A DNA stretch of 59,941 bases from a virus. Lineage: Duplodnaviria; Caudoviricetes. A model generated the notes under the pieces. The model was not told the origin of the DNA. It ran no database searches and saw nothing but the letters and a program-made list of their open reading frames with translations. The position numbers and the translations under genes are program-made. The stretch is from IMG/VR virus record IMGVR_UViG_3300037502_003163, positions 1 to 59,941 of that record. The stretch is one strand, 5' to 3'. Each line of letters opens with the position of its first letter. Positions within the stretch are counted from its first letter, which is position 1. Shown in pieces: positions 1,474 through 59,658 of this stretch.

Positions 1474-2175
1474 ATGACAATATATAATAATACCCGTCAA
1501 TTCATTCTCGACAAATACTCCATCGACCTTAACAACGAGCAGCCCGACTATCGCCTAAGTGATGGCAATACTAAGCTGAAAAAAGACGGCATTGTATCGT
1601 TCAATCTGATACCCATTGTCCACTGCCCAATGGCGGGAGCCTGTAAAAGCTTTTGTTATGCTACCGTTGGCCAGCAGGCATTCAAGAATGGGGTCCTTCG
1701 CCGTGCTCGGGCATTTCTAGCCACCCAACAAGCAGACTTCGTTCCGAGAATGGTGGCCGAGGTACAGCGAGCCGTTACTCGGGGTGCTAAGGCAGTCCGC
1801 GTTCATGATTCAGGAGACTTCTATTCTTATGAGTATCTGCTCCAATGGTTCGAGATAGCTCGAGCCAATCCGGACACCCGTTTCTACGCATACACTAAGA
1901 TGGTTTCTTTGGTTCGGATGGCATATAAAGCCGGTATCGTTCCGTCTAACTTCAGACTGATTCAATCCTTAGGCGGCATTGCAGATAAACAAGTAGACTG
2001 GTCTTTGCCTCACAGCAGGATATTCGCTTCCCTCGACGAGCTATTAGCCGCAGGGTATGCCGATGCCTCAGAAAGTGATGCACCAGCAGCGTTCAGTGAT
2101 ACGCCAAATGTGGGCTTAATTATTCACGGTGCCAAGTCTAAACGTTTCGATGCTAGTACTATGAACGTAGCTTAA
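1474..2175 (+). CDS. Gp88-like (radical-SAM-related) protein
   Basis: CPMAGACKSFCYA Cys cluster, RVHDSGDF and FYAYTK motifs; GGAGG SD. Confidence 0.75.
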   Translation: MTIYNNTRQFILDKYSIDLNNEQPDYRLSDGNTKLKKDGIVSFNLIPIVHCPMAGACKSFCYATVGQQAFKNGVLRRARAFLATQQADFVPRMVAEVQRAVTRGAKAVRVHDSGDFYSYEYLLQWFEIARANPDTRFYAYTKMVSLVRMAYKAGIVPSNFRLIQSLGGIADKQVDWSLPHSRIFASLDELLAAGYADASESDAPAAFSDTPNVGLIIHGAKSKRFDASTMNVA

Positions 2176-2211
2176 TAGCAGATAACACCATACAAATATA
2201 TGGAGATTCCC

Positions 2212-2874
2212 ATGAGTAACTTCTTCGCCGTCAACCACAGCCAATTGTCCGATGACTTAGCAGTGGCTTTGCCCAACTACCGGATTGCCCACTACCCTCG
2301 GACTAGTATCAGCAATAAGACTAAACAGGTAAAGGGCACCAAGCACCTTTACCGCCTACGCAGCGAGCACCTTTTCAAGGTCGGCAATGATTTAGTCACC
2401 CCGATGGTGGTGCTCCGTGACCAGACCTTCCCAGGCGCAGCGCTGAAATTGCACGTCGGGTTATACCGTCTCGTGTGTAGCAATGGCCTGCTAGGTGTTG
2501 CTATCAGCGAGCCCACTGTTCGGATACCACACTTTACTAACAGGAAGGAGCAGCTTGAGGGTATTGCCGCAGCAATCTTCGACGCCTCAGCGAGAATGGA
2601 ATCTATTATCGAGACGGCCAATACCTTGACCACTATCCAGGTAAAGGCACCGACTACTGTTGTCGAGTCGCTTGGCTTGCCTAAGACGCTGGTCGAGAAG
2701 CTATTACTCGGTGTCAAAGCCGGCAATGTCCGTCCGGAAGACGATATCACCACGGTATGGGGCCTATACAACTATATTAATGAGACGATGTTTAGCCGTA
2801 CCCGAAGCGTGTTCGCTGCAGTAGACCGGGACACGACACTGGTCAGCCAAATCATCACAGCCAATGCAGCGTAA
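2212..2874 (+). CDS. DUF932/DUF945-family protein
   Basis: GLYRLVCSNG motif, downstream His, and TVWGLYN. Confidence 0.75.
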   Translation: MSNFFAVNHSQLSDDLAVALPNYRIAHYPRTSISNKTKQVKGTKHLYRLRSEHLFKVGNDLVTPMVVLRDQTFPGAALKLHVGLYRLVCSNGLLGVAISEPTVRIPHFTNRKEQLEGIAAAIFDASARMESIIETANTLTTIQVKAPTTVVESLGLPKTLVEKLLLGVKAGNVRPEDDITTVWGLYNYINETMFSRTRSVFAAVDRDTTLVSQIITANAA

Positions 2875-2882
2875 TCAGGTAA

Positions 2883-2924
2883 AGAACACAACCGTGAAGG
2901 GCACGATAGTGCCCGATACAGGAG
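2883..2924 (+). promoter_or_regulatory. Conserved hairpin element before a start codon (copy 1 of 3)
   Basis: AGAACACAACCGTGAA-GGGCAC-GATA-GTGCCC-GATACAGGAG. Confidence 0.6.
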
Positions 2925-2930
2925 ACCACT

Positions 2931-3158
2931 ATGACACCGAATCAAATCAAGAAAGCCGAACAACTCTTAGCCAAGAGAAAGGAACTATTGACGTTAAAGG
3001 ACCGGAATGGTTGCGCGGTAGGTGAAATACGTCCCGAGCTCGATAGTCGATACCAAAAACAGCCCGTTCTCGTTATCCAGACCAACACCGTCTCACTCGA
3101 AACACTAGAACGGTGGATAAAGCAGGCCAAGACTGCACAAAAAAAGAATATTCTTTAA
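2931..3158 (+). CDS. Hypothetical protein
   Basis: AGGAG SD; 75 aa ORF. Confidence 0.65.
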   Translation: MTPNQIKKAEQLLAKRKELLTLKDRNGCAVGEIRPELDSRYQKQPVLVIQTNTVSLETLERWIKQAKTAQKKNIL

Positions 3159-3183
3159 CAGATAACGACTGAAAGGAATTATC

Positions 3184-3663
3184 GTGGGATACACACATTA
3201 CTGGACTTTCAATTTCAAAGCAGGTAAAGCGTCCGACCTCGAAGCGAAATATCAGAAGGCTATTCTGGAATGCCAAAAGGTAGTCCGGGCCATTGCTGAG
3301 GATAACCGAAAGGTGTATGGTAGCTCGTGTCTGAGTGGGTACACTGCCCACTGTACGCCGGGACAATACGGCGGTATCAAGGTAAACGGTAAAGGTGATG
3401 ATAGCTGCGAGGACTTCTTTCTGAGGGAGCACTTTCGCGAGAATGAGGAGAGAAACTTTTGTAAAACTAGGCAGTATACTTATGATACAGCGGTCGTGGC
3501 TTGTCTCGCTGTACTCAAGTACAGACTGGGAGATGCTATCACCATCACCAGCGATGGGACATCTCTAGACTGGGAAGAAGGGGCAAACTTTGCAGCGAAA
3601 GTACTGAAACGGAAGGTAAAGATACCATCAACTATATTCCATGTTCTCCGCTTAGCTAGGTAA
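3184..3663 (+). CDS. Conserved phage hypothetical protein
   Basis: MGYTHYW start and FCKTRQYTYD motif, typical of a widespread phage family. Confidence 0.75.
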   Translation: MGYTHYWTFNFKAGKASDLEAKYQKAILECQKVVRAIAEDNRKVYGSSCLSGYTAHCTPGQYGGIKVNGKGDDSCEDFFLREHFRENEERNFCKTRQYTYDTAVVACLAVLKYRLGDAITITSDGTSLDWEEGANFAAKVLKRKVKIPSTIFHVLRLAR

Positions 3664-3695
3664 ACAGAAAAGACAATGACTGAAAGGAATTGGCT

Positions 3696-4052
3696 ATGAT
3701 TACCACTATCATCAACGTCATCGGCATCGTCATCATCACCGTCCTCCTATTAATGGGAGCCTTAAACTTGTACTTGATTGTCCGCTCCTGGTTCACGCCT
3801 CAAGTTGACCCATCCCGTCTCCAATATGCGAGACTCAGACTGGAATGGGAGAGCAATTGTGTCACGTATAAAGTAGTACCCTACTATGATGAAAAGACAC
3901 TAGAAATATCTACGATGTTGGCAGCAGCTATTTCGATGAGGGAGGAGACTGATGGCGAAGGGAAGCGCTATGTCCAAGACAAGGTAAAGGCCGTCACTGT
4001 AGTCCACAAGAATTGGCCCCGTCCCACGGCCACCGATGCCGGGGAGGCATGA
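3696..4052 (+). CDS. Membrane protein
   Basis: Long N-terminal hydrophobic helix; AAAGGA SD. Confidence 0.7.
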   Translation: MITTIINVIGIVIITVLLLMGALNLYLIVRSWFTPQVDPSRLQYARLRLEWESNCVTYKVVPYYDEKTLEISTMLAAAISMREETDGEGKRYVQDKVKAVTVVHKNWPRPTATDAGEA

Positions 4053-4053
4053 T

Positions 4054-4230
4054 ATGCCGACTAAGACCGAAACCTTTTATCTCGAGGTAGAGAGCGAAGC
4101 TCTACAGTTTGTGAGCAAATGTTCCGAAGAGGACATCACTGCCGTGATGTTGCCGGTCGAAGACCATGACGGCAGGAAGTACTACCCGGTAAAAGTTACC
4201 TTTGACCCCGCTTTGCTAAAGAAAAAGTAA
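4054..4230 (+). CDS. Small hypothetical protein (YP[VI] family)
   Basis: GGAGG SD before ATG 4054; DGRKYYPVKVTF. Confidence 0.65.
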   Translation: MPTKTETFYLEVESEALQFVSKCSEEDITAVMLPVEDHDGRKYYPVKVTFDPALLKKK

Positions 4231-4254
4231 CCAGTTTATACAGGAGCAAATGAA

Positions 4255-4470
4255 ATGCGCGACCTACCCGGCTTCCAAAACATCGCCTACTTTGACACCG
4301 AATGGGAACGTGATTTGTTCATCAGCAATGTTGAAGGCATACCCGAAGTGTTAATTACTAAGCTAGAAGTCATCACTAGGGATGACGTACCCATGTACCC
4401 GATTCACCTCGTCTTTACAGATGAGGAGACCCCTAGCGAGTTGCCACCCATCGTGACTACCCCTTTCTGA
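4255..4470 (+). CDS. Small hypothetical protein (YP[VI] family)
   Basis: AGGAG SD; DDVPMYPIHLVF. Confidence 0.65.
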   Translation: MRDLPGFQNIAYFDTEWERDLFISNVEGIPEVLITKLEVITRDDVPMYPIHLVFTDEETPSELPPIVTTPF

Positions 4471-4481
4471 GGAGTAAAACA

Positions 4482-4718
4482 ATGAAAGATAATGAGAATC
4501 AATATCAGGGCCAGTCTTTCTTAGAGTATCAGATTGATAGTACCGCCAGTCTCCTCTGCTCCTCGCTTAGCGAGCTGGCACCATGCTCCTCGCGGACAGT
4601 GACGCAAGTAGAACTAGCACTCCGGGTAGCATTTAGGGAAGTATCTCCGGCTACTATCCAACAAGTGATAAACACGGTCAACAATTGTTTCACTGGGGAG
4701 AACGACGATGAGCCATGA
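4482..4718 (+). CDS. Hypothetical protein
   Basis: GAGGAG SD; operon context. Confidence 0.65.
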   Translation: MKDNENQYQGQSFLEYQIDSTASLLCSSLSELAPCSSRTVTQVELALRVAFREVSPATIQQVINTVNNCFTGENDDEP

Positions 4719-5007
4719 AATCACTTCACCGATTCAACTCGCAGCCAGATTGACTGACGCCTTGTATAGGGAGAGCATTGTCAACTCCGACTCCGCGCAG
4801 GCTTTGTTCGACGTACTGGCCGACGCCTTGGTGGCGAGACCCGACATCGTAGCTGCGGTATCTGCTGACTTGGCCGAGAAACAGCAAGCGAAAGACGACT
4901 ATCTGGCTGACGTGATGCGGAGACTGGATGATATGGAACAGGATATGCTTCGCCGATACCACGCCACGACTGAACATGAAATTGCGAAAGGACACAACAA
5001 TGACTAA
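4708..5007 (+). CDS. Hypothetical protein
   Basis: GGGGAG SD; overlaps neighbouring genes. Confidence 0.65.
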   Translation: MSHEITSPIQLAARLTDALYRESIVNSDSAQALFDVLADALVARPDIVAAVSADLAEKQQAKDDYLADVMRRLDDMEQDMLRRYHATTEHEIAKGHNND

Positions 5008-8345: not shown

Positions 8346-8663
8346 ATGGCGTACGGTAATCAAAGCAATCGTTTCTCTCCGAAATCACCTGCTTCGCAGG
8401 GCAACTCAGCTGGTGCACCTCGTACCAACGGCGGCGGCATGAAAGCCGGTCTCAATAAGCTGCTGATGTCCACTGGCCTCTTCAAGCCACGTAGTGAGAA
8501 GGTCAAGGCTGTTGCTTCTGTCGCTACCGAGATTCCTGTCGACTTGAAGGCTGGCCAACGGGTGTTCATTGACCTCCATCAGAACAGTCCTGAAGATGTG
8601 GCTGCTGGTAAACCACCCTTCTTCATCCTGATTAAGGAAGCTCCTGAGCAGAAGCGGGCTTAA
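8346..8663 (+). CDS. Hypothetical protein, possibly ssDNA-binding (DUF736-like)
   Basis: Strong AAGGAG SD; small beta-rich protein next to nuclease and polymerase; function is a guess. Confidence 0.5.
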   Translation: MAYGNQSNRFSPKSPASQGNSAGAPRTNGGGMKAGLNKLLMSTGLFKPRSEKVKAVASVATEIPVDLKAGQRVFIDLHQNSPEDVAAGKPPFFILIKEAPEQKRA

Positions 8664-8720
8664 GGTCATAGCCTGTATGACTCTAGTACCAACGGTAGCT
8701 ATCCTTTGAGCGGGTAGCAT

Positions 8721-8752
8721 GGCAGGATGTAGCGCTCCTGCCTCTTTCTTTT
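8721..8752 (+). terminator. Rho-independent terminator
   Basis: GGCAGGA-N8-TCCTGCC followed by TCTTTCTTTT. Confidence 0.75.
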
Positions 8753-8761
8753 CTGATAACA

Positions 8762-8810
8762 AACACTACCGTGAAGGACGCCCGCGAAGCGAGGTGTCCG
8801 TTACAGGAGG
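8762..8810 (+). promoter_or_regulatory. Conserved hairpin element (copy 2 of 3)
   Basis: AACACTACCGTGAA-GGACGCC-CGCGAAGCGA-GGTGTCC-GTTACAGGAGG. Confidence 0.6.
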
Positions 8811-8816
8811 TTAGCA

Positions 8817-8957
8817 ATGATACTAGCAGCACTCATCTACTTCTGTGCCAATCAAGGACTGTTAGTTGCCAGCCCGGTGGTAATCAATACCCTCGCCGCC
8901 GGAGCAGTCGTCACTACTTATAGCAGTAAAATCAATATCAATGTCGGTGGTCGGTAG
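8817..8957 (+). CDS. Small hydrophobic protein (46 aa)
   Basis: AGGAGG SD; MILAALIYFCANQGLLV... Confidence 0.6.
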   Translation: MILAALIYFCANQGLLVASPVVINTLAAGAVVTTYSSKININVGGR

Positions 8958-9026
8958 CGTTGGCGGGAGGACGTTCCGCACTTGCTACTCGTAAAGAGAT
9001 AAGTTATTACTATCGTAGGTGAAGCT

Positions 9027-11294
9027 ATGGACTCAGTTACCCTCACCACTCATCCCCGTTTCGTTCTCTTAGAACCGCGCTCCGTACCTCCGCGCGTTGG
9101 CGAATCGTACCAACGGGTATGTCCCACCGGACGGGAGGTAGAGAACTTACTCCGCGCCGCGTTCCAATCACCGTTCATAGCAGTCGACTTCGAGACGAAG
9201 GGCAATGACTATTCCCTTCCCGTTGACGATGCCCACGTCATTGGTGTCGGCCTCGCTTGGGACAGGGGCAGCTGCTACTTGGACCCCTCCAGCCTATCTG
9301 CCACGGAGTGGCGTCTCCTTGACCGGATTTTCCTAGAGCATAAAGGCTTGCTTGCCCACAATGTTTACTTTGACGGGGGCTGGCTACGCCGAGACTATGG
9401 CATCCATCCCGGGTGGTACGCGTGTACGTATGGTATGTATATGCAGCTCGCTAGTGAGGGCTTTGAAGGACAGAGATGGGGCCTCAAAGATGCAATGACA
9501 GACTTGTTAATGTGGAGTAGCACCAACGAAACCGACCTCGACAATTGGTTAGTCAGTAACGGCTACAAGAATCAAAGCCATCGTCCCCTAAAGGGCGAGA
9601 TGTGGAGGGCACCATCAGATATCCTCGGGAAGTATTGTGTGCTCGATGCCGAGGCAACCTATCTACTCTTCACCGAAATCTTTCAACCCGTACTGGACAA
9701 GTTTCCATCGGTACTCCAATACCACCGCGATGACTTCCTCCCTCACGTCATGATTCACATCGACCAAAAGATGCATGGCATACTAACGGACCGCCAGCAT
9801 TGGCTGCGGTATACTTCGGAACTAGTCGGCTCCATCGCTGCCAGTGAACACGCCTTCCGCAACCATGAACGGGTCGCCCCATTGATTGCCGAATGGGAAG
9901 CGAAGAAGATGGCTACCTTCCTCGAGAAGGAACCACCCCAGTTCAAGAAAGGGAAGGAAAGGAAGGAGCCCCCCCGCCTGACTAAGAGCGGGGAAGTCAG
10001 CAAGAATTGGTTGAAGTGGTATGAGCTCAGTCAGCGGCCGCCCGAGATAAACAATAACTGGTTGAAGTGGCGAGAAAAGAAATCTCAAATTGACCGGGGG
10101 GAATTGTCCGACTACAAGTTTAACTTGCAGTCCGGGGACCACCTGAGGTGGCTCCTTTATGACCAGCTCAAGTTTCCAACCAAGCTCGAAACGGATAGCG
10201 GGTTGCCTGCTGTTAGCGAGGACGCCCTCCAGTCGATGGGAGATATCGGCCAAATACTTATTGGCCGGGCACTAAAGGTCAAGGAGTTATCCTATGTTGA
10301 GGACTATGTGGAACGTACTGAAACGAGGCCTACTCTCCATCCCTCGTTCCGGATGCCGGGTACAGTTACGGGTAGACTTGCTGGCAAGGAACCCAATCTT
10401 CAACAGTTGCCAAAGACTAAAGGAACACTTACTGGTCTCATATCCCGGCCTGGTCATTCGTTTGTGGACTGTGATGTTAACGCTTTGGAGATGGTTGTTA
10501 CTGCTGAGTTGAGTCAAGACAGGAATCTCCTTTCCCTCTACGGGCCAGGAGCGCAACCCAACGATATTTATACATTCTATGGCAGTATGATGGCAGGTAT
10601 CGGACCCAAGCTAACGTCACTAGGTTACGACCCATACAAGCCAGTTAAAGAAATACTGGATGCAACTAAAAAAGCCTTCAAGAAGGAACGTTCCATTGCG
10701 AAGCTGCTCATCCTGTCGGATAACTACGGCTCCGGTGTCAAGAAGAAACAGAAAATCTTGTCCCTCAACGGTGTGGATATGACCCTCCGGGAAGTCGAGG
10801 CTATGCACCAATCTCTAATGGAGGCCAAAGCCGGAGTCCTTGCTTACGTTGAATGGTTACGGGATGAATGGAGAGCCAATGGGGGCTGGATAGAAAACGG
10901 GTATGGACGCCCCATCTGCGTGGATGAGAAGTACGAAAAGGATTTATTAAATCGCTGCCTGGCGGCGGGCACACTAGTACACACAAAGCGGGGACTGGTT
11001 CCAATTGAGCAGGTTACTAATGATGACGTAGTTTGGGACGGACATGAATGGGTGACACATTCTGGCGTGATATTCAAAGGGGTACAAGAAGTCATAACAG
11101 TTAATAGTGTTGACATGACCCCGGACCATGCTATCTTTATTGATGAGCACAACAAGAAGGAGGCTCAATATGTCGGACAACTGGATAGCGTCCTCGAAAC
11201 CACACCCGGAAATAATTGGTCAACGCTTTGGAGACTTTGTTGTAGTGTCGCATATCTACTGGCGAAGAAATGGAAAAGGTCCTGCATACGTTGA
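9027..11294 (+). CDS. polA: Family A DNA polymerase N-fragment fused to split intein IntN
   Basis: ExoI VDFET, ExoII HNVYFD, ExoIII YCVLD; TGRLAGKEPNLQQLP; motif A DVNALE; motif B RSIAKLLILSDNYG; then CLAAGT intein start. Confidence 0.92.
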   Translation: MDSVTLTTHPRFVLLEPRSVPPRVGESYQRVCPTGREVENLLRAAFQSPFIAVDFETKGNDYSLPVDDAHVIGVGLAWDRGSCYLDPSSLSATEWRLLDRIFLEHKGLLAHNVYFDGGWLRRDYGIHPGWYACTYGMYMQLASEGFEGQRWGLKDAMTDLLMWSSTNETDLDNWLVSNGYKNQSHRPLKGEMWRAPSDILGKYCVLDAEATYLLFTEIFQPVLDKFPSVLQYHRDDFLPHVMIHIDQKMHGILTDRQHWLRYTSELVGSIAASEHAFRNHERVAPLIAEWEAKKMATFLEKEPPQFKKGKERKEPPRLTKSGEVSKNWLKWYELSQRPPEINNNWLKWREKKSQIDRGELSDYKFNLQSGDHLRWLLYDQLKFPTKLETDSGLPAVSEDALQSMGDIGQILIGRALKVKELSYVEDYVERTETRPTLHPSFRMPGTVTGRLAGKEPNLQQLPKTKGTLTGLISRPGHSFVDCDVNALEMVVTAELSQDRNLLSLYGPGAQPNDIYTFYGSMMAGIGPKLTSLGYDPYKPVKEILDATKKAFKKERSIAKLLILSDNYGSGVKKKQKILSLNGVDMTLREVEAMHQSLMEAKAGVLAYVEWLRDEWRANGGWIENGYGRPICVDEKYEKDLLNRCLAAGTLVHTKRGLVPIEQVTNDDVVWDGHEWVTHSGVIFKGVQEVITVNSVDMTPDHAIFIDEHNKKEAQYVGQLDSVLETTPGNNWSTLWRLCCSVAYLLAKKWKRSCIR
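10956..11294 (+). mobile_element. Split intein N-part (IntN, 112 aa)
   Basis: Block A CLAAGTLVHTKRG and block B TPDH; ends at a stop codon with no block G. Confidence 0.88.
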
Positions 11295-11862
11295 TGTACA
11301 GTGCGACCACGGAACAAGCAGGCAGTCAATAGACAATTTGCGGACAAGCAAGGTTAGGGGATGTAAACTTTGTTTTCAAAAACGAAATGGATTAGTTACT
11401 TTTCAAGATGAGACAGACCGTAGACTCTTTAAGCACTATAAGTCCATCTACAACCGCACTACTTACGCCGGTGTTAATGGTTACCATAACTATGGAGGAG
11501 CCGGTATTACCTTGTGTGACGCATGGAAAAACAATCCCCGCGCCTTTATTGATTATGTTAAGGAACTTCCAGGATACTCGGTAGGAAAGACTCTTGACCG
11601 AATAGATAATGAGAAGGGATACATGCCCGGCAATCTGCGGTGGGCAACGCGAAAAGAGCAAGCATACAACAGACGAGACACAATTAAAGTGAGGTGGAAT
11701 AATGAGGACATCTCTTTCAAAGATTTTGCTGAACGATATACCGACCTATCTCAGTCGCAGGCTCTTGCGCTTTGGCATAAAGGCTGGACTCTTCAACAAC
11801 TCGTCGACCACGTCCCAAAAGAAATCGGTGCCCGTGTACGATATAATAAACGCAGGGCCTAG
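11170..11862 (+). CDS. Free-standing HNH homing endonuclease between the split intein halves
   Basis: AGGAGG SD before ATG 11170; YGGAGI and TLDRIDNEKGYMPGNLRWATRKEQAYN motifs. Confidence 0.88.
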   Translation: MSDNWIASSKPHPEIIGQRFGDFVVVSHIYWRRNGKGPAYVDVQCDHGTSRQSIDNLRTSKVRGCKLCFQKRNGLVTFQDETDRRLFKHYKSIYNRTTYAGVNGYHNYGGAGITLCDAWKNNPRAFIDYVKELPGYSVGKTLDRIDNEKGYMPGNLRWATRKEQAYNRRDTIKVRWNNEDISFKDFAERYTDLSQSQALALWHKGWTLQQLVDHVPKEIGARVRYNKRRA

Positions 11863-11908
11863 ACGTAGATTTACAGTTCAAGGAACTAAAACCTTTGTAG
11901 TCTCGAAC
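11702..11908 (+). mobile_element. Split intein C-part (IntC, 69 aa)
   Basis: Block F VYDIINAGPRRRFTV; terminal Asn followed by Cys+1 at 11909. Confidence 0.85.
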
Positions 11909-12181
11909 TGCGTGCAATCAACAGGCCACGATATCTTACAACTTTGGGCCAGGATAACAGCGAGGCGGTTGACCGAAGCGGAGATAAACTGGAAGCCCAC
12001 AGTCTGGGATTGGCACGATGAAATCATCATCGAAGTTCCAGATAGTCAAGTGGCGTTGGCGAAACATATTATGGAAGTTGATTCTTTTGCTGAACTTAAC
12101 CAGATACTCGGAGGAACTTGTCCCTTGAAAGGGAGTGCCGCTGTGGCGAAGACACTAGCCGGCATTAAATTGGAGGAGTAA
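11702..12181 (+). CDS. polA: Split intein IntC fused to the DNA polymerase C-fragment
   Basis: GAGGTGG SD before ATG 11702; VYDI...VVSN|C junction; CVQSTGHD and motif C WHDEIIIEV. Confidence 0.9.
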   Translation: MRTSLSKILLNDIPTYLSRRLLRFGIKAGLFNNSSTTSQKKSVPVYDIINAGPRRRFTVQGTKTFVVSNCVQSTGHDILQLWARITARRLTEAEINWKPTVWDWHDEIIIEVPDSQVALAKHIMEVDSFAELNQILGGTCPLKGSAAVAKTLAGIKLEE

Positions 12182-12185
12182 GACA

Positions 12186-12419
12186 GTGGATATAGTAATG
12201 GAAATATTTTTTTGGTCAGCGTTTACCGCGTGTTCCGAAACGAAGTTGGTGTTACCACCCGGAGCGGATGAGACGGTGGATGATAGGTCCGCCGTAGCCC
12301 GGGCCAAGCATCACTGCGCGGAGCTGTATGAAAACTCCCCGTGCGCCAGAACTGTCGAGCGGAGAAAGCATCTGTCTTACTGGGTGATATGTGGCGGGTA
12401 TGACGTGGAAGCAAAATAG
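12186..12419 (+). CDS. Small Cys-containing hypothetical protein
   Basis: GGAGGAG SD; four Cys residues. Confidence 0.55.
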   Translation: MDIVMEIFFWSAFTACSETKLVLPPGADETVDDRSAVARAKHHCAELYENSPCARTVERRKHLSYWVICGGYDVEAK

Positions 12420-12472
12420 TCCTAAAGTCCGGGCGGTCTCCTACCGATATTATAGGTGGAGGCAGCGATACT

Positions 12473-12964
12473 ATGAAACAATTATTACTCCTTACTTTAC
12501 TTGTCGGCTGTGGTGTGGAGCAGGCTTGTCAAAGCAGTGGCAGGGTCAGTCGCCGGACACCCAGGATAGGGGACTGTACCCCGGAGCAGGTTAGTCCTCG
12601 CATCAATCCACAACTCCAGTACGCGGTAGAGCTATTCTCAAATGATGCCACCCGACACGAGGTACCCTGCCAGACTACTCCCATTGTCGGGTTCTCATCC
12701 GATATGGGCCCGGATAAGAAGAAGGGTGTGGTCGGGTACTGCATTGATAGTTGGGAGGTGCGAGTCTTGACCAGCTATTGGCAGACCGCTTCAGCTACCG
12801 ACCGACTCCTCCTCATGTACCACGAACTGGGCCATTGCGCTCTTGGTCTTGACCATCTCGATGGTGAGATTGATATCATGAATAGCTACCTCTTAGATGA
12901 CGTCACCGCTGAAAAGGAGTGGGACGATTTAGTAAACAAGATGTTTGAAAGGAAGAAGAAATGA
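12473..12964 (+). CDS. Lipoprotein zinc metalloprotease (matrixin/metzincin-like)
   Basis: Lipobox LVG|C; HELGHCALGLDH and Met-turn DIMN. Confidence 0.8.
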   Translation: MKQLLLLTLLVGCGVEQACQSSGRVSRRTPRIGDCTPEQVSPRINPQLQYAVELFSNDATRHEVPCQTTPIVGFSSDMGPDKKKGVVGYCIDSWEVRVLTSYWQTASATDRLLLMYHELGHCALGLDHLDGEIDIMNSYLLDDVTAEKEWDDLVNKMFERKKK

Positions 12965-16599: not shown

Positions 16600-18042
16600 A
16601 TGTCTATGGAATTCAGGTCGCACTTTCCCTATCCAGTGATACGTTCCTTTCAAGAGGAGACGTTACGCTTACTTGAAGAGCGGTGGGACAATTATGACGT
16701 CTTTGTTATTGTAGCACCGACCGCCTTCGGGAAGAGTGCCATCGCCCGAACGCTAATGAATGGCGCGTACTCCGCTAGTTATATTGTACCGACCAATCAG
16801 CTCGTCGACCAGTTCCTGTCTACCTTCCCAGACACTCGCACCTTGAGACGGATGGATAGTTACTTTTGCGAAAAGTGGCGCCGCCCGTGCCCAAAAACGA
16901 AAGCCATGCTGAAGAATTTCTGTAACGGGTGTCAGTGCGGTAGCGATGTGGCGCAGGCAAAGTACCGGAACGGGCCGGGTATCTATACCTATCACGCGTA
17001 CCTTGCCCACAGGTTGTATCGGGATGTCCTCATTGTCGACGAAGCGCACCAGCTCTTGCCCATGCTCCAAAGTATGGGGGAGGTGGTATTGTGGCAGCAT
17101 GATTATAGGTATCCCTCCTCGGCCTACCGGCCTGCGGAATTGTTGCGGTGGGCCGAGAGTTTACCCAAGAAGAAGAAGGAAGGAGCGAAGCTGTCACTCC
17201 TACTTGAAAACTTACGAAGCCAGGTACCGGAATATGCAGTGTCACGTCAAAGACGTGAGTTCAACGGTAAGGGTACCCGGCGTGGGGAACCGGAGGAGAG
17301 GGACTGCGTAGTGTTGACCCCCCTGTCCGCCCGAGAACATAGTGGCAAAATGTGGCCGGGTGTCAAGAAGATAGTCCTCATGAGCGCCACGATTAACTTC
17401 AAAGATATTGAAGCTCTCGGCCTCAGCGACCGTAGGGTCGCGTACATCCACAGCCCGAGTCCAATACCAGCCGATAGGCGGCCCTTCATTGTCGATGACA
17501 TTGTGACTGTCTCCTATAACAACTTAGCTTCCTCAACGGAGACGATGGCTACTTACATCCGAGATATAATTTATCCCCGGCATGTCGGAGAGAGGGGCCT
17601 CATCCACGCTACCTATCAGATGTCCCAGCTACTCCGTAACCATTTGGTGGGACCCCAGTATCTCTTCCACGACAGGGAAAACAAAAAGGAAATGTATCAG
17701 AGGTATCTCAACATGCCCGGAGCAGTACTGATAGCTTGCGGAATGCACGAGGGTTGCGATTTACCAGACGATGCCGGACGTTGGCAGGTAGTTCTCAAGA
17801 TACCGTGGCCGAGTTTGGCCGACCCAGCTGTAGCTGCCCTCGCCCAACGCGACCCTGAGTGGTACGACTGGAGCACTGCCAAAGCCCTAATTCAAGCGGG
17901 TGGTAGGGTGTCCAGACACGAAAAAGATTTTGGTGTGACATATTGTCTCGACGGTACGTTTTTTAAACTATATGATAGAGCCCAGCATCTGTTCCCCCAC
18001 TGGTTTACAGATTGCTTAGTAGACGGGAAATACCATGACTGA
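16600..18042 (+). CDS. DinG/XPD-like SF2 helicase
   Basis: APTAFGKS, DEAH, SAT, QAGGRVSRHEKDFG and a Cys cluster (Fe-S). Confidence 0.88.
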   Translation: MSMEFRSHFPYPVIRSFQEETLRLLEERWDNYDVFVIVAPTAFGKSAIARTLMNGAYSASYIVPTNQLVDQFLSTFPDTRTLRRMDSYFCEKWRRPCPKTKAMLKNFCNGCQCGSDVAQAKYRNGPGIYTYHAYLAHRLYRDVLIVDEAHQLLPMLQSMGEVVLWQHDYRYPSSAYRPAELLRWAESLPKKKKEGAKLSLLLENLRSQVPEYAVSRQRREFNGKGTRRGEPEERDCVVLTPLSAREHSGKMWPGVKKIVLMSATINFKDIEALGLSDRRVAYIHSPSPIPADRRPFIVDDIVTVSYNNLASSTETMATYIRDIIYPRHVGERGLIHATYQMSQLLRNHLVGPQYLFHDRENKKEMYQRYLNMPGAVLIACGMHEGCDLPDDAGRWQVVLKIPWPSLADPAVAALAQRDPEWYDWSTAKALIQAGGRVSRHEKDFGVTYCLDGTFFKLYDRAQHLFPHWFTDCLVDGKYHD

Positions 18043-18571
18043 GATTTGGAAACCATTGGCGGGTCAATTTTCGCACTATCCCTATGAAGTCTCAAGTATG
18101 GGAAACGTACGGCGGGTATTAACAAATAAATACCGACCACTAAAACCATTTGTAGACACACGGTACGTGTGTGTAAACATTTACTTGAACGGTAGGGCGG
18201 TGAAGTGCTTAGTACACAGATTAGTCGCAACTGCTTTTCTGGATAACCCAGACAACAAGCCCCAAGTAAATCATAAGGATGGAGACCACACGAATAACAA
18301 CGTCTCTAATCTAGAGTGGGTCACTAGCTCTGAAAATGTACAACACTCCCTGATTGTTCTCAACAACCAGCTCAAAACTATGTATAGCACTAATACTTCC
18401 GGACACAAGGGAGTAACTCGATTACCCACGGGGCGGTGGCGGGCAGTTGTATGGCGGGACTATAAGTCGATTCATGTTGGGGTATATGCGACGATTGAGG
18501 AAGCGGTAGCCGCTCGCGATGAAGCCAGTAAAAAATTGTGGCCAGAACTTAGTGGGGGAGAAATTGTATGA
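18035..18571 (+). CDS. NUMOD4-HNH-AP2 homing endonuclease
   Basis: EIWK...YEVSSMGNVR, VHRLVA...VNHKDG...NLEW, and NTSGHKGV AP2-like tail. Confidence 0.9.
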   Translation: MTEIWKPLAGQFSHYPYEVSSMGNVRRVLTNKYRPLKPFVDTRYVCVNIYLNGRAVKCLVHRLVATAFLDNPDNKPQVNHKDGDHTNNNVSNLEWVTSSENVQHSLIVLNNQLKTMYSTNTSGHKGVTRLPTGRWRAVVWRDYKSIHVGVYATIEEAVAARDEASKKLWPELSGGEIV

Positions 18572-42474: not shown

Positions 42475-43146
42475 CTATCCTTTTTTCTTTTTGTATTTGG
42501 TTCGAGCACTATTACTCTCCCCGTTAAGATACCAAAAATTTAACTTGTGTCGAGTAGAACTTGCTTGTGTATACCCGATTAATACTCGACTAATACTAGC
42601 AGCTGGAATTTTGAGGTCATTTTCGGCAGCTAAAAGACTGTCGTAAGTTTTTCCATTCGAGCAACCGATTGGTGTATTAAATTTGGCACGAATTGATTGG
42701 GCTCGGCGGGCTAACACTTCAGGACCAAATTCCTGCTTTTCTCGTGCTTCCCTAATCCTTTCCCTGGTTTCTTCTGATACTTTACGGTTTCTCATCCGGG
42801 CTAGTGTTTCCTCAGAAAGTTTGGCACCGAGGCGAGTTACCGTGTTAGTATTCAAATTATACTCAGGGGATGCCATTTGAATCCACCAGTGTTCCATTCC
42901 AGCACAATACTCGGGTTCATGTTCTTCGATTACCCAAAACACAAAAGCTTCTGACCCGTATTTGTTCCAAGCATTTTGTAGATATCTATTGCCGTGCTTA
43001 TTTTTATTCAGGTCACTTTTGTGCTGATGGAATCTAAGATAAAGACACCGAGCAGCACTCCCAATGTACCGGTTTCCTGTCACATGATTTTCTATCATGT
43101 AGATTCCCGTTTTCTTTTTCCATGTAATACCATTGTCGAAATTCAT
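42475..43146 (-). CDS. GIY-YIG homing endonuclease with NUMOD3-like tail
   Basis: GIYMIEN...YIGSA, LQNAWNKYG, EYN and repeated SEET motifs. Confidence 0.9.
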   Translation of the reverse strand: MNFDNGITWKKKTGIYMIENHVTGNRYIGSAARCLYLRFHQHKSDLNKNKHGNRYLQNAWNKYGSEAFVFWVIEEHEPEYCAGMEHWWIQMASPEYNLNTNTVTRLGAKLSEETLARMRNRKVSEETRERIREAREKQEFGPEVLARRAQSIRAKFNTPIGCSNGKTYDSLLAAENDLKIPAASISRVLIGYTQASSTRHKLNFWYLNGESNSARTKYKKKKG

Positions 43147-43217
43147 GCATAGGACACCTTTCTGTGGGGTTGCTGCCCCGGTTATACTAACCGCCCTCCA
43201 TGGGCGGCTCATTCCCC

Positions 43218-59024: not shown

Positions 59025-59053
59025 ATACTACCTCATCTACGAAGGGGTGTCAA
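59025..59053 (-). promoter_or_regulatory. sigma-70-type promoter
   Basis: TTGACA-N17-TAGTAT. Confidence 0.7.
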
Positions 59054-59658
59054 TCCTCAAGTTGGCCTGCTGCGGCCGCTTCTTCAAGAAAGACCTTAGC
59101 CATCTTCAGTACATGGATGCGAAATTCGGACAAATCCATCGCCATCTTCATCTTATTACAGATACCACAGCAGGTCACCACATTGTCCGGAACATAGCCC
59201 AAGTGGGAGTGAATCCGGTCTATCCCGTTCATCTTCGCGGTATGGGTCCGGCCTTTTTTGGCAAACCTTCCACTGTAATCTCGAGGACTATCTTTACAGT
59301 ATGTACAGTCACCTTTTACCAAAGCCAAGAATTGTTCGGGACTTAGCCGCCACTCAATTCCACGTTTGACTGCAGACCGGATATATCGGAGATGTTGGAC
59401 TCGAATCGCTTTGGTCCACCCCCTCAGTTTCACTCCCTTTTCCGCCGCTTCCTCAAGCAATTCCGTATGATACTTACAAGCGCCGCACGTCTTGACTTTG
59501 CCCGCAGCGGCCTCGCTACCCCTCACTTCCTTAATATTGCCACAGTCGCATTTAGCCATCCAATAGATACCTTTACCCGACCCCCCACTTCGGACGGGAT
59601 AGAGCAGTGTAAGATGGCCATATTTATGACCTTTGTGGTCTCGTCGTTTAGCTGCCAT
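59050..59658 (-). CDS. HNH homing endonuclease
   Basis: YGHLT...WMAKCDCG, CTYC and NGIDRIHSHLGY..DNVVTCCGICNKMK; AGGAGG SD. Confidence 0.85.
   Translation of the reverse strand: MAAKRRDHKGHKYGHLTLLYPVRSGGSGKGIYWMAKCDCGNIKEVRGSEAAAGKVKTCGACKYHTELLEEAAEKGVKLRGWTKAIRVQHLRYIRSAVKRGIEWRLSPEQFLALVKGDCTYCKDSPRDYSGRFAKKGRTHTAKMNGIDRIHSHLGYVPDNVVTCCGICNKMKMAMDLSEFRIHVLKMAKVFLEEAAAAGQLED

Follow-up and report, generated by a model that had tools for sequence, protein, structure and literature searches.

Fractured phage genes in which the halves of a split intein flank an endonuclease gene are known from metagenomes through Dassa et al. 2009 (PMC2677866). In the available part of that paper, the broken genes are gp41, NrdA, NrdJ, IMPDH, DnaE, ligase, TerL and one unknown gene, and the gp41-1, NrdJ-1 and IMPDH-1 split inteins originate from this set. 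The endonucleases in that part are GIY-YIG and Vsr-like only, overlaps of 6-69 bp occur at the endonuclease 3′ end, and HNH cases are predicted. Contiguous inteins of actinobacteriophages that carry an endonuclease VII-like gene in another frame are described in the accessible portion of a preprint by Gosselin, Arsenault and Gogarten (bioRxiv 10.1101/2025.01.02.630785), where such invasions are proposed to usually end as split inteins; the accessible portion of Arsenault et al. 2025 (PMC11855218) deals with an HNH hidden in another frame of a phage methylase. Here we describe a locus of this kind in the IMG/VR record IMGVR_UViG_3300037502_003163 (Duplodnaviria; Caudoviricetes). At positions 9027-12181, the gene for a family A DNA polymerase is fractured, and we consider it likely, on sequence grounds, that its product is rejoined by protein trans-splicing. 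Here ‘window’ refers to the whole stretch analysed, a complete viral record of 59,941 bp in which the + strand carries a replication module and the - strand carries structural genes. An earlier reading of the locus made from its letters alone (the sequence-only reading) had rightly counted split-intein fractured phage genes with an endonuclease as already known.

The locus holds three open reading frames (ORFs), each in its own frame (Table 1). ORF1 (9027-11294, 755 amino acids (aa)) comprises extein residues 1-643 and then continues as KDLLNR|CLAAGTLVHTKRGLVPIEQV...TPDH... for 112 further codons, the N-terminal intein half (IntN). ORF3 (11702-12181, 159 aa) reads ..VPVYDIINAGPRRRFTVQGTKTFVVSN|CVQSTGHD..WHDE, the C-terminal intein half (IntC) followed by the C-extein. 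The frame of the HNH-like gene between them is open from 11128 with its likely start at ATG 11170. Most of this layout had been seen before: the 643-aa extein running into CLAAGT...TPDH, the other frame of ORF3 and its own GAGGTGG Shine-Dalgarno (SD) site all stand, and so does the free-standing nature of the HNH-like gene, which has its own SD site and ATG. Two details do not. ORF1 does not stop right after TPDH but runs for 54 more codons to 11294, and the HNH-like gene does not lie cleanly between the halves but overlaps both, ORF1 by 125 nucleotides (nt) and ORF3 by 161 nt.

Both exteins belong to one polymerase. The N-extein matches Pfam DNA_pol_A_exo1 (7e-09) and DNA_pol_A (1.8e-22) as well as phrog_17 (1.7e-48, profile positions 657-1150), and the C-extein corresponds to Pfam DNA_pol_A positions 295-354 and phrog_17 positions 1149-1226. 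On the PHROG polymerase profile, ORF1 thus extends up to position 1150 and ORF3 begins from position 1149. Uninterrupted homologues, taken from a search of 5.8 billion proteins, are many; they are 731-737 aa long, are 65-74% identical to the N-extein, and read ..KDLLNR|VVQGTGHC.. or ..KDILNR|VVQSTGHD.. where the intein is missing. The exteins of the window joined give 643+90 = 733 aa, and the sole junction change from the intein-less alleles is +1 Val to Cys. Because intact homologues read through LLNR|VVQ(S/G)TGH, the lengths agree, and the profile junction falls at 1150/1149, the insertion is exact. The homologue lengths and the PHROG junction also support the joined sequence LLNR-CVQSTGHD and the length of 733 aa given in the sequence-only reading.

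As judged by eye against the consensus, what we take to be motif A (DVNALE) and motif B are on ORF1, and motif C (HDE) is on ORF3; motifs A and C are on separate polypeptides, as had been claimed. No second polymerase was found among the 35 large ORFs scanned of the 70 in the window, and the phage's only recognisable DNA polymerase is probably stitched together post-translationally. Nucleotide comparison of the region with phage records by blastn gave no match, tblastn gave distant polymerases only (<32% identity), and a viral scan with the N-extein alone as a single query gave nothing.

The insert was identified through its family. A probe alignment of IntN from the window and from the protein P0002 pulled 5 viral and 80 metagenome loci (loci and contigs are cited here by L numbers, proteins by P numbers). 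Among the 90 IntN matches in those 85 loci, 26 are other inteins sharing the first block only and 64 make up one family, with the consensus CIAEG..VLTDRGLVPIEQV..VWDG.EWV.H.GV.YKG..VI.Y.GL.ATPDH ... VYDI.NAGPRHRFTVSG.LV(H/S)N|C. Residue 644 of ORF1, the Cys directly after KDLLNR, is invariant in 42/42 family sequences. In the family IntN alignment A2 (42 sequences), Cys1, the Thr and His of TxxH, and a WDG motif are invariant, with TPDH in the window; in the IntC alignment A3 (43 sequences), the block-F Asp (D47) and the terminal Asn (N69) are invariant, and the +1 Cys (C70) is kept in at least 90%. By these sequence features, the element appears to be a class-1-type intein.

Profile and structure comparisons point the same way. 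Intein profiles barely register with the halves alone, and NCBIfam gives nothing for the intein; compared with the family by hhalign, the IntN of the window matches A6, a profile of 16 family mini-inteins, with a probability of 99.7 (E 1e-26, 52% identity), and A5, a profile of ORF3 homologues, matches the C-terminal blocks of A6 with a probability of 98 (E 2e-13). An AF2 (AlphaFold2) model of the mini-intein relative L007 has a pLDDT (predicted local distance difference test) score of 90 and a predicted template modelling (pTM) score of 0.84. It has 42 PDB matches at E <= 1e-3, and among the matches listed all are intein, bacterial intein-like or other Hint domains, including Ssp DnaB (5e-07), Mtu RecA, Npu DnaE (TM 0.77) and gp41-1 (TM 0.78, root-mean-square deviation (rmsd) 2.4). 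Profile searches of PDB sequences returned inteins or intein-like proteins only, 14/14 for A2 and 12/12 for A6, with best E values of 0.002-0.005. The family is thus modelled with the Hint fold, and the window would have it by proxy, via the L007 model and the hhalign matches of its halves. The acidic IntN core and basic IntC of the sequence-only reading agree with residue counts, 13 D/E vs 5 K/R in IntN 1-85 and 12 K/R vs 2 D/E in ORF3 1-69.

A profile search of 1.84 billion representatives returned 3807 proteins at E <= 0.001, 222 of them at E <= 1e-30, and this is therefore a very common phage-polymerase intein. Among the 150 listed of the 3807 matches, many of the proteins are large polymerases containing between two and four copies, and a few, e.g., P0182 and P0220, match near the C-terminus, where contig ends could mimic split genes.

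The break itself is real, old and conserved. An independent 61-kb viral contig (L087) has the same three ORFs, of 759, 243 and 159 aa (the last 190 aa from an upstream ATG), at ~65% nucleotide identity to the window and with zero indels over 11024-12178. A protein pair from another contig, P0002 (757 aa) and P0122 (159 aa), has the same ends as the window, and P0073 (768 aa, 39% identity) is broken at the same place, its IntN following ..VNR|. P0122 and P0123 share the N-terminal extension of ORF3 with the same Met-Arg start. Independent assemblies give ORF lengths of 757, 159 and 159 aa, and at least 4 lineages share the layout. Over 10700-12400, the window is matched without a difference by a second, independent assembly of the probable source run. 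Three runs belonging to two other studies yield short contigs that are gap-free over 10997-11147, 11183-11399, 11484-11634, 11584-11798 and 11876-11943, leaving 11799-11875 and parts of 10814-10984 and 11954-12103 uncovered. These alleles, the second assembly and the gap-free contigs exclude the indel errors that the sequence-only reading had named as a possible refutation. Since the arrangement recurs in a diverged allele and matches an intein family, it is more than chance.

Selection was examined by Nei-Gojobori counts on one sequence pair only, the window and L087, as the proportions of synonymous (pS) and nonsynonymous (pN) differences. IntN outside the overlap has pS 0.78 and pN 0.187, the adjacent N-extein 0.84 and 0.187, and the endonuclease gene outside the overlaps 0.85 and 0.163. 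In IntC outside the overlap (11863-11908, 15 codons), 4/4 substitutions are synonymous. By these counts, purifying selection acts on IntN and on IntC, and strongly on the HNH-like gene.

The two overlaps are coding in both frames. Nucleotide identity of the pair rises from 0.62-0.69 where a single frame is coding to 0.87-0.88 in the two overlaps, and substitutions at third positions of the HNH frame drop from 76/136 outside to 7/41 and 8/53 in the overlaps (Fisher 1e-05, 2e-07); therefore, the ORF1 tail and the ORF3 N-terminus are also coding. The most conserved stretches of the region are 11226-11285, within the ORF1 tail, and 11676-11795, covering the SD site and ORF3 residues 1-31 with 5 substitutions per 120 nt vs L087. 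Coding function and constraint thus apply to the ORF1 tail as well as to the ORF3 extension, and the start of ORF3 is at ATG 11702 or close to it. P0002 and L087 both keep the tail, and the start contexts of the endonuclease gene and ORF3 are both conserved in L087. A GTG at 11828 or 11834 was ruled out as the true ORF3 start, because the ATG and its SD site are conserved and the two-frame constraint covers 11702-11795.

For the endonuclease gene, we use the term HNH-like because PHROG names and a weak structural resemblance are the basis of the label, and because the first His is replaced. PHROG families named HNH endonuclease match it (phrog_374 at 3.5e-35, another at 5e-30), as the sequence-only reading would have it, but no Pfam HNH family is found at E <= 0.01 in 27/27 members of the endonuclease family. 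NCBIfam has no match for the endonuclease, and phmmer against PDB gave no meaningful match. Family features are an N-terminal four-Cys region, NYGGRGI and (D/E)RIDN.G.Y.P.N.R(W/F).T...(Q/E)N. When the 27-member profile (A4) is compared with PDB, the best match is I-HmuI (E 0.08) with DRIDN aligned to DHKDG, so the first His of the HNH motif corresponds to an invariant Arg (DRID, window 11599-11610). A structure model of the endonuclease (pLDDT 85) gave nothing at E <= 1e-3 in Foldseek, with I-HmuI at rank 19, and VIA-align ranks PacI, an HNH enzyme, first, with a weak match (Z 5.3, rmsd 3.1, 78 residues aligned).

We conceive the course of events as follows. A class-1-type intein would have entered at a site two residues N-terminal to the conserved Gln ahead of motif C, and the free-standing HNH-like gene would have broken it at the usual endonuclease-insertion loop. 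Three proteins would now be made from one strand by separate initiation, PolA-N with IntN from ATG 9027, the endonuclease from ATG 11170, and IntC with PolA-C from ATG 11702. The acidic IntN and the basic IntC would associate into a Hint fold, in which Cys1, TxxH, the terminal Asn and the +1 Cys perform trans-splicing. The predicted product is a 733-aa polymerase, ..LLNR-CVQSTGHD.., with motifs A/B and C on one chain and a junction peptide ..LLNRCVQSTGHD.. (..DLLNRCVQSTGHDILQLW.. in a chymotrypsin/Glu-C digest). The endonuclease, for its part, probably cuts intein-less alleles (..NR|VVQ..) of co-infecting relatives, by which the cassette would spread. We infer association, splicing and endonuclease activity alike from the sequence.

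Several observations weigh against this course. The IntN of the window alone reaches Pfam Hint_2 only, at E 0.044, and phmmer of IntN alone and of ORF3 against PDB found no intein. The penultimate His of block G is absent, with Ser in its place (..FVVSN|C), as the sequence-only reading had noticed. This Ser also occurs in several relatives, including L007, L033, L034, L038, L042, L046, L051 and L052, and is an ordinary variant in the family; a penultimate His is common but not obligatory in inteins. Two-chain structure prediction of IntN with its tail against ORF3 1-80, with their own alignments, scored 0.46 while the best of 3 controls scored 0.00, with contact agreement between runs of at least 82% and a partner pLDDT of at least 51, giving weak support for this course. 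The pass mark for such predictions lets through 116/157 solved complexes and 2/215 mismatched pairs, and passes at <=0.60 include 18/157 complexes and both mismatches; because solved split inteins exist, the pass may reflect likeness, not binding. The endonuclease has no canonical first His, making its activity uncertain. Finally, the role of the ORF1 tail (6 K/R, 0 D/E) and the ORF3 extension (8 K/R, 1 D/E) is unexplained, and the two are unlikely to attract each other because both are basic.

The missing His speaks for an alternative that we think unlikely, that the polymerase works as two subunits without splicing and the intein halves serve as a non-covalent dimerisation module or have lost their chemistry. 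Genes fractured by homing endonuclease genes without inteins can work as assembled fragments, e.g., Aeh1 NrdA as cited in the available part of PMC2677866, and relatives of the window polymerase are split at another site without intein motifs (P0050/P0130). However, diverged split alleles keep all of C1, TxxH, the terminal Asn and the +1 Cys, the last in place of an ancestral Val. Substitutions in the IntC-only part are all synonymous, and the break, which lies within the catalytic core, separates motif B from motif C.

In favour of a decaying intein or pseudogene, with a dead polymerase and a phage that uses a host or other polymerase, broken inteins are an expected stage of decay according to the accessible portion of Gosselin et al. 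(bioRxiv 10.1101/2025.01.02.630785), and the family does contain a frameshift inside an IntN (L058). At this locus, we regard decay as quite improbable: both exteins and both intein halves are under purifying selection at saturated synonymous divergence, the layout persists in the at least 4 lineages mentioned above, and the 35 large ORFs scanned of 70 include no other polymerase.

More than 25 stops lie in frame 0 past 11294, and several lie in frame 2 ahead of 11690, so that two +1 shifts through the endonuclease frame are the sole route to one ORF. A single fused precursor PolN-IntN-HNH-IntC-PolC could be made in this way by two programmed +1 frameshifts, at the frame overlaps 11128-11294 (frame 0/HNH) and 11702-11862 (HNH/frame 2), and would then amount to an intein of canonical type whose endonuclease is in frame. 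We give this very little credence, because strong and conserved SD sites with ATG precede both the HNH-like gene and ORF3, and because the two-frame constraint spans the whole of both overlaps. Moreover, the endonuclease is out of frame, with IntN and IntC in the same frame, in 31/31 contiguous relatives carrying the endonuclease gene.

The record is a metagenome assembly with full-length read-level support from the probable source run only, from which an assembly or sequencing indel in a continuous gene might be suspected; given the >25 frame-0 stops, the same frames in L087 without an indel, the independent ORF lengths, and the gap-free contigs from two other studies, such an artefact is highly improbable. 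Although HNH-carrying introns are known in phage polymerase genes (PMC3428280, in its available part), removal of a group I or group II intron with its endonuclease gene at the RNA level is scarcely credible, with 0 Rfam matches at E <= 1 in 8500-12800 and insert flanks that encode intein blocks under protein-level selection.

Trans-splicing of a fractured gene is placed in context by other members of the intein family. The 64 family matches comprise 25 mini-inteins of <200 aa without an endonuclease gene, 31 contiguous inteins in which a gene homologous to the endonuclease gene of the window lies in frame +1 (24) or frame +2 (7), 1 long contiguous intein without an endonuclease match, 4 with a stop ahead of an IntC, 2 that run off the contig, and 1 cut at the contig start. 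In 31/31 contiguous cases, the intein frame is open through the endonuclease gene, and the endonuclease is never in the intein's frame. From this class breakdown, the clade of the window derives from the overprinted form, by closure of the intein frame.

A second, clean fractured locus of the family is found in L057 (503-1859), where IntN stops after 94 aa, a GIY-YIG ORF occupies 784-1722 (Pfam 6e-09), and the IntC gene runs from 1722, MKQRTYDIL..VSN|S (MKQRTYDILNAGPRNRFMASGVIVSN|S). The frameshift of L058 (736-1900) lies in IntN between ..YQGKK and DVITYQGLTATPDH, with IntC ..KLVSN|S in the shifted frame, and reflects decay or else an error of sequencing. Together with L057 and L058, the 4 matches with a stop ahead of an IntC include L010 and a second copy in L059, both of which stop at or near a contig end.

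In some contiguous relatives (L015, L037, L025, L032 and L002), the codons of the intein motif (E/K)KEVI spell AAGGAGGT, ~20 nt 5′ of the endonuclease ATG. The same AAGGAGGT thereby doubles as an intein block and as the SD site of the out-of-frame endonuclease gene. Single polymerases with two, up to four, family inteins at different sites are found in L003/L004, L022/L024 and L048, besides many top family matches, and each intein often has its own out-of-frame endonuclease gene.

A FastTree tree of N-exteins was built with 115 sequences, excluding proteins of <640 aa and the duplicates P0001 and P0026. An intein-less allele is the sister of each of the three close split alleles, those of the window, L087 and P0002, and the SH-like (Shimodaira-Hasegawa-like) support values are 0.93, 0.98 and 0.997. 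The patchiness is compatible with homing that continues as well as with precise loss that recurs.

We tentatively entertain a further reading, while rather doubting it. The cassette may be a three-gene, two-overlap mobile unit that is still homing despite the split, with the ORF1 tail and the ORF3 extension as add-ons for trans-splicing (docking, chaperoning, timing), so that the selfish gene and the repair of its damage would be interlocked. The strongest nucleotide conservation of the region, which lies in the overprinted stretches, and the scatter of split alleles among intein-less ones on the extein tree both fit it.

Close relatives also show other interruptions. A different, full-length intein of ~310 aa sits elsewhere in P0028, P0031, P0035, P0046 and P0052 and in L088 and L089 (~1522-4782); it reads ..PNLQQ|CFAPDTE...YVTSQ|CPKT.., ends in Gln, not Asn, gives weak Pfam Hint_2 and Intein_splicing matches, and has carriers scattered on the extein tree. 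A third type of break, between ..LYGPGA and NDLYLF.. and without intein motifs, separates P0049-P0051 (544-546 aa) from P0126 and P0130 (248 aa), the N-half having a conserved tail of ~36 aa (TWPSVPVQDL...EVCDEDL) and the C-half a leader of ~26 aa. An intron might explain this break, as might gene fracture of the Aeh1 NrdA type, in which no intein takes part. P0125 (101 aa, MQGSKTFIVSN|CVQ..) and P0051 (544 aa), which both have a longest contig of 11060, may belong to one phage, whose polymerase would then have the LYGPGA break as well as the site-C split intein and come in three pieces.

Within the ORF3 overlap, a 30-nt patch (11796-11825) has 11 substitutions vs L087 and is flanked by two highly conserved overprinted stretches; it encodes ORF3 residues 32-41 and an endonuclease linker. 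The promoter-like site in Table 1 belongs to a class found 5 times in the region vs 4.3 expected in shuffled sequence, which is no excess. Elsewhere, the window has three further genes resembling homing endonucleases: an HNH gene directly follows the helicase gene (18035-18571, +), a GIY-YIG-like gene lies among structural genes (42475-43212, -), and an endonuclease VII/HNH-like gene lies near the record end (59050-59658, -).

Table 1 Features of the fractured polymerase locus, in window coordinates
Feature	Position	Strand	Description
N-extein	9027..10955	+	3′-5′ exonuclease, then polymerase domain up to and including motifs A and B; 643 aa; C-terminal KDLLNR
IntN	10956..11294	+	112 codons and stop; Hint N-lobe ~10956-11210 (Cys1, TPDH), then conserved basic tail NNWSTLWRLCCSVAYLLAKKWKRSCIR
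Promoter-like TTGACA-16-TATCTT	11110..11137	+	just 5′ of the HNH-like gene; a lead only
Shine-Dalgarno AAGGAGG of the HNH-like gene	11157..11163	+	6 nt 5′ of ATG 11170; kept in L087
HNH-like gene	11170..11862	+	230 aa, third frame, free-standing; motif DRIDNEKGYMPGNLRWATRKEQ
Shine-Dalgarno GAGGTGG of ORF3	11691..11697	+	4 nt 5′ of ATG 11702; context 97% identical in L087
ORF3 N-terminal extension, aa 1-42	11702..11827	+	overprints the 3′ part of the HNH-like gene; conserved
IntC core VPVYDIINAGPRRRFTVQGTKTFVVSN	11828..11908	+	blocks F and G, terminal Asn
C-extein	11909..12181	+	90 aa and stop; N-terminal CVQSTGHD; motif C (WHDE), conserved C-terminus

With this locus, the few fractured genes known from nature would come to include a replicative polymerase of family A and an endonuclease of HNH-like type. 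One intein family here presents a mini-intein, a contiguous intein with an out-of-frame endonuclease gene, an intein split by the same gene, and one split with a GIY-YIG gene (L057), so that natural intermediates exist for a direct test of the gene-breaking model (Dassa 2009; the Gogarten-lab 2025 preprint). With constraint on two frames in each overlap, the locus offers a clean case of overprinting by which a selfish gene is bound to the mechanism that rescues its host. The window element is also a candidate orthogonal split intein, with Cys1, ..VVSN|C and a short IntC core, and at least 4 natural variants are at hand for comparison. Searches of the open-access and bioRxiv literature gave no paper on a split intein within a family A polymerase, nor one on a gene fractured by an endonuclease of HNH type.

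The cyanobacterial DnaE inteins (Npu, Ssp) resemble the window element in splitting a replicative polymerase, in Cys1 and +1 Cys, and in a close fold (Npu DnaE TM 0.77). The cyanobacterial DnaE split intein also has a non-His penultimate residue, an acidic IntN and a basic IntC. However, its halves are at separate loci without an endonuclease (available part of PMC2677866), and its host enzyme is Pol III alpha. Split inteins in DNA polymerases are further represented by Nanoarchaeum equitans PolB (NEQ068) and Aes123 PolB1 (PDB 9hth), which are the top PDB profile matches, NEQ068 with A2 (E 0.002) and 9hth with A6 (E 0.005), but these are family B polymerases, and their similarity to the window family is marginal.

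Aeh1 NrdA likewise has an HNH-type gene between the halves of an essential phage enzyme and peptide segments derived from a mobile element, but it has no intein, and its fragments assemble non-covalently (PMC2677866, in the part available). Compared with the inteins of Gosselin et al., the likeness is in the 31/64 family matches that carry an out-of-frame endonuclease gene in an open intein frame. On the other hand, the intein frame of the window is closed, with IntN and IntC in different frames, whereas the preprint, in its accessible portion, deals with endonuclease VII-like genes of actinobacteriophages and names Pol III alpha as the polymerase.

The closest system remains that of Dassa et al. 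As far as the available part of their paper extends, both have a phage replication-type enzyme broken by a split intein, an endonuclease gene between the halves on the same strand and with its own translation signals, and an endonuclease 3′ end overlapping the start of the IntC gene; the gp41-1 structure is also among the best fold matches of the L007 family model. The window differs from that part in its host, a family A polymerase outside their eight enzyme types, in its HNH-like endonuclease, where theirs are GIY-YIG/Vsr-like, and in overlaps of 125 and 161 nt on both sides vs 6-69 bp, with conserved extensions on both halves. Thus, the split-intein pair that the sequence-only reading thought may be new is new in its host enzyme, its endonuclease type and the intein pair itself, while its principle has been known since Dassa 2009.

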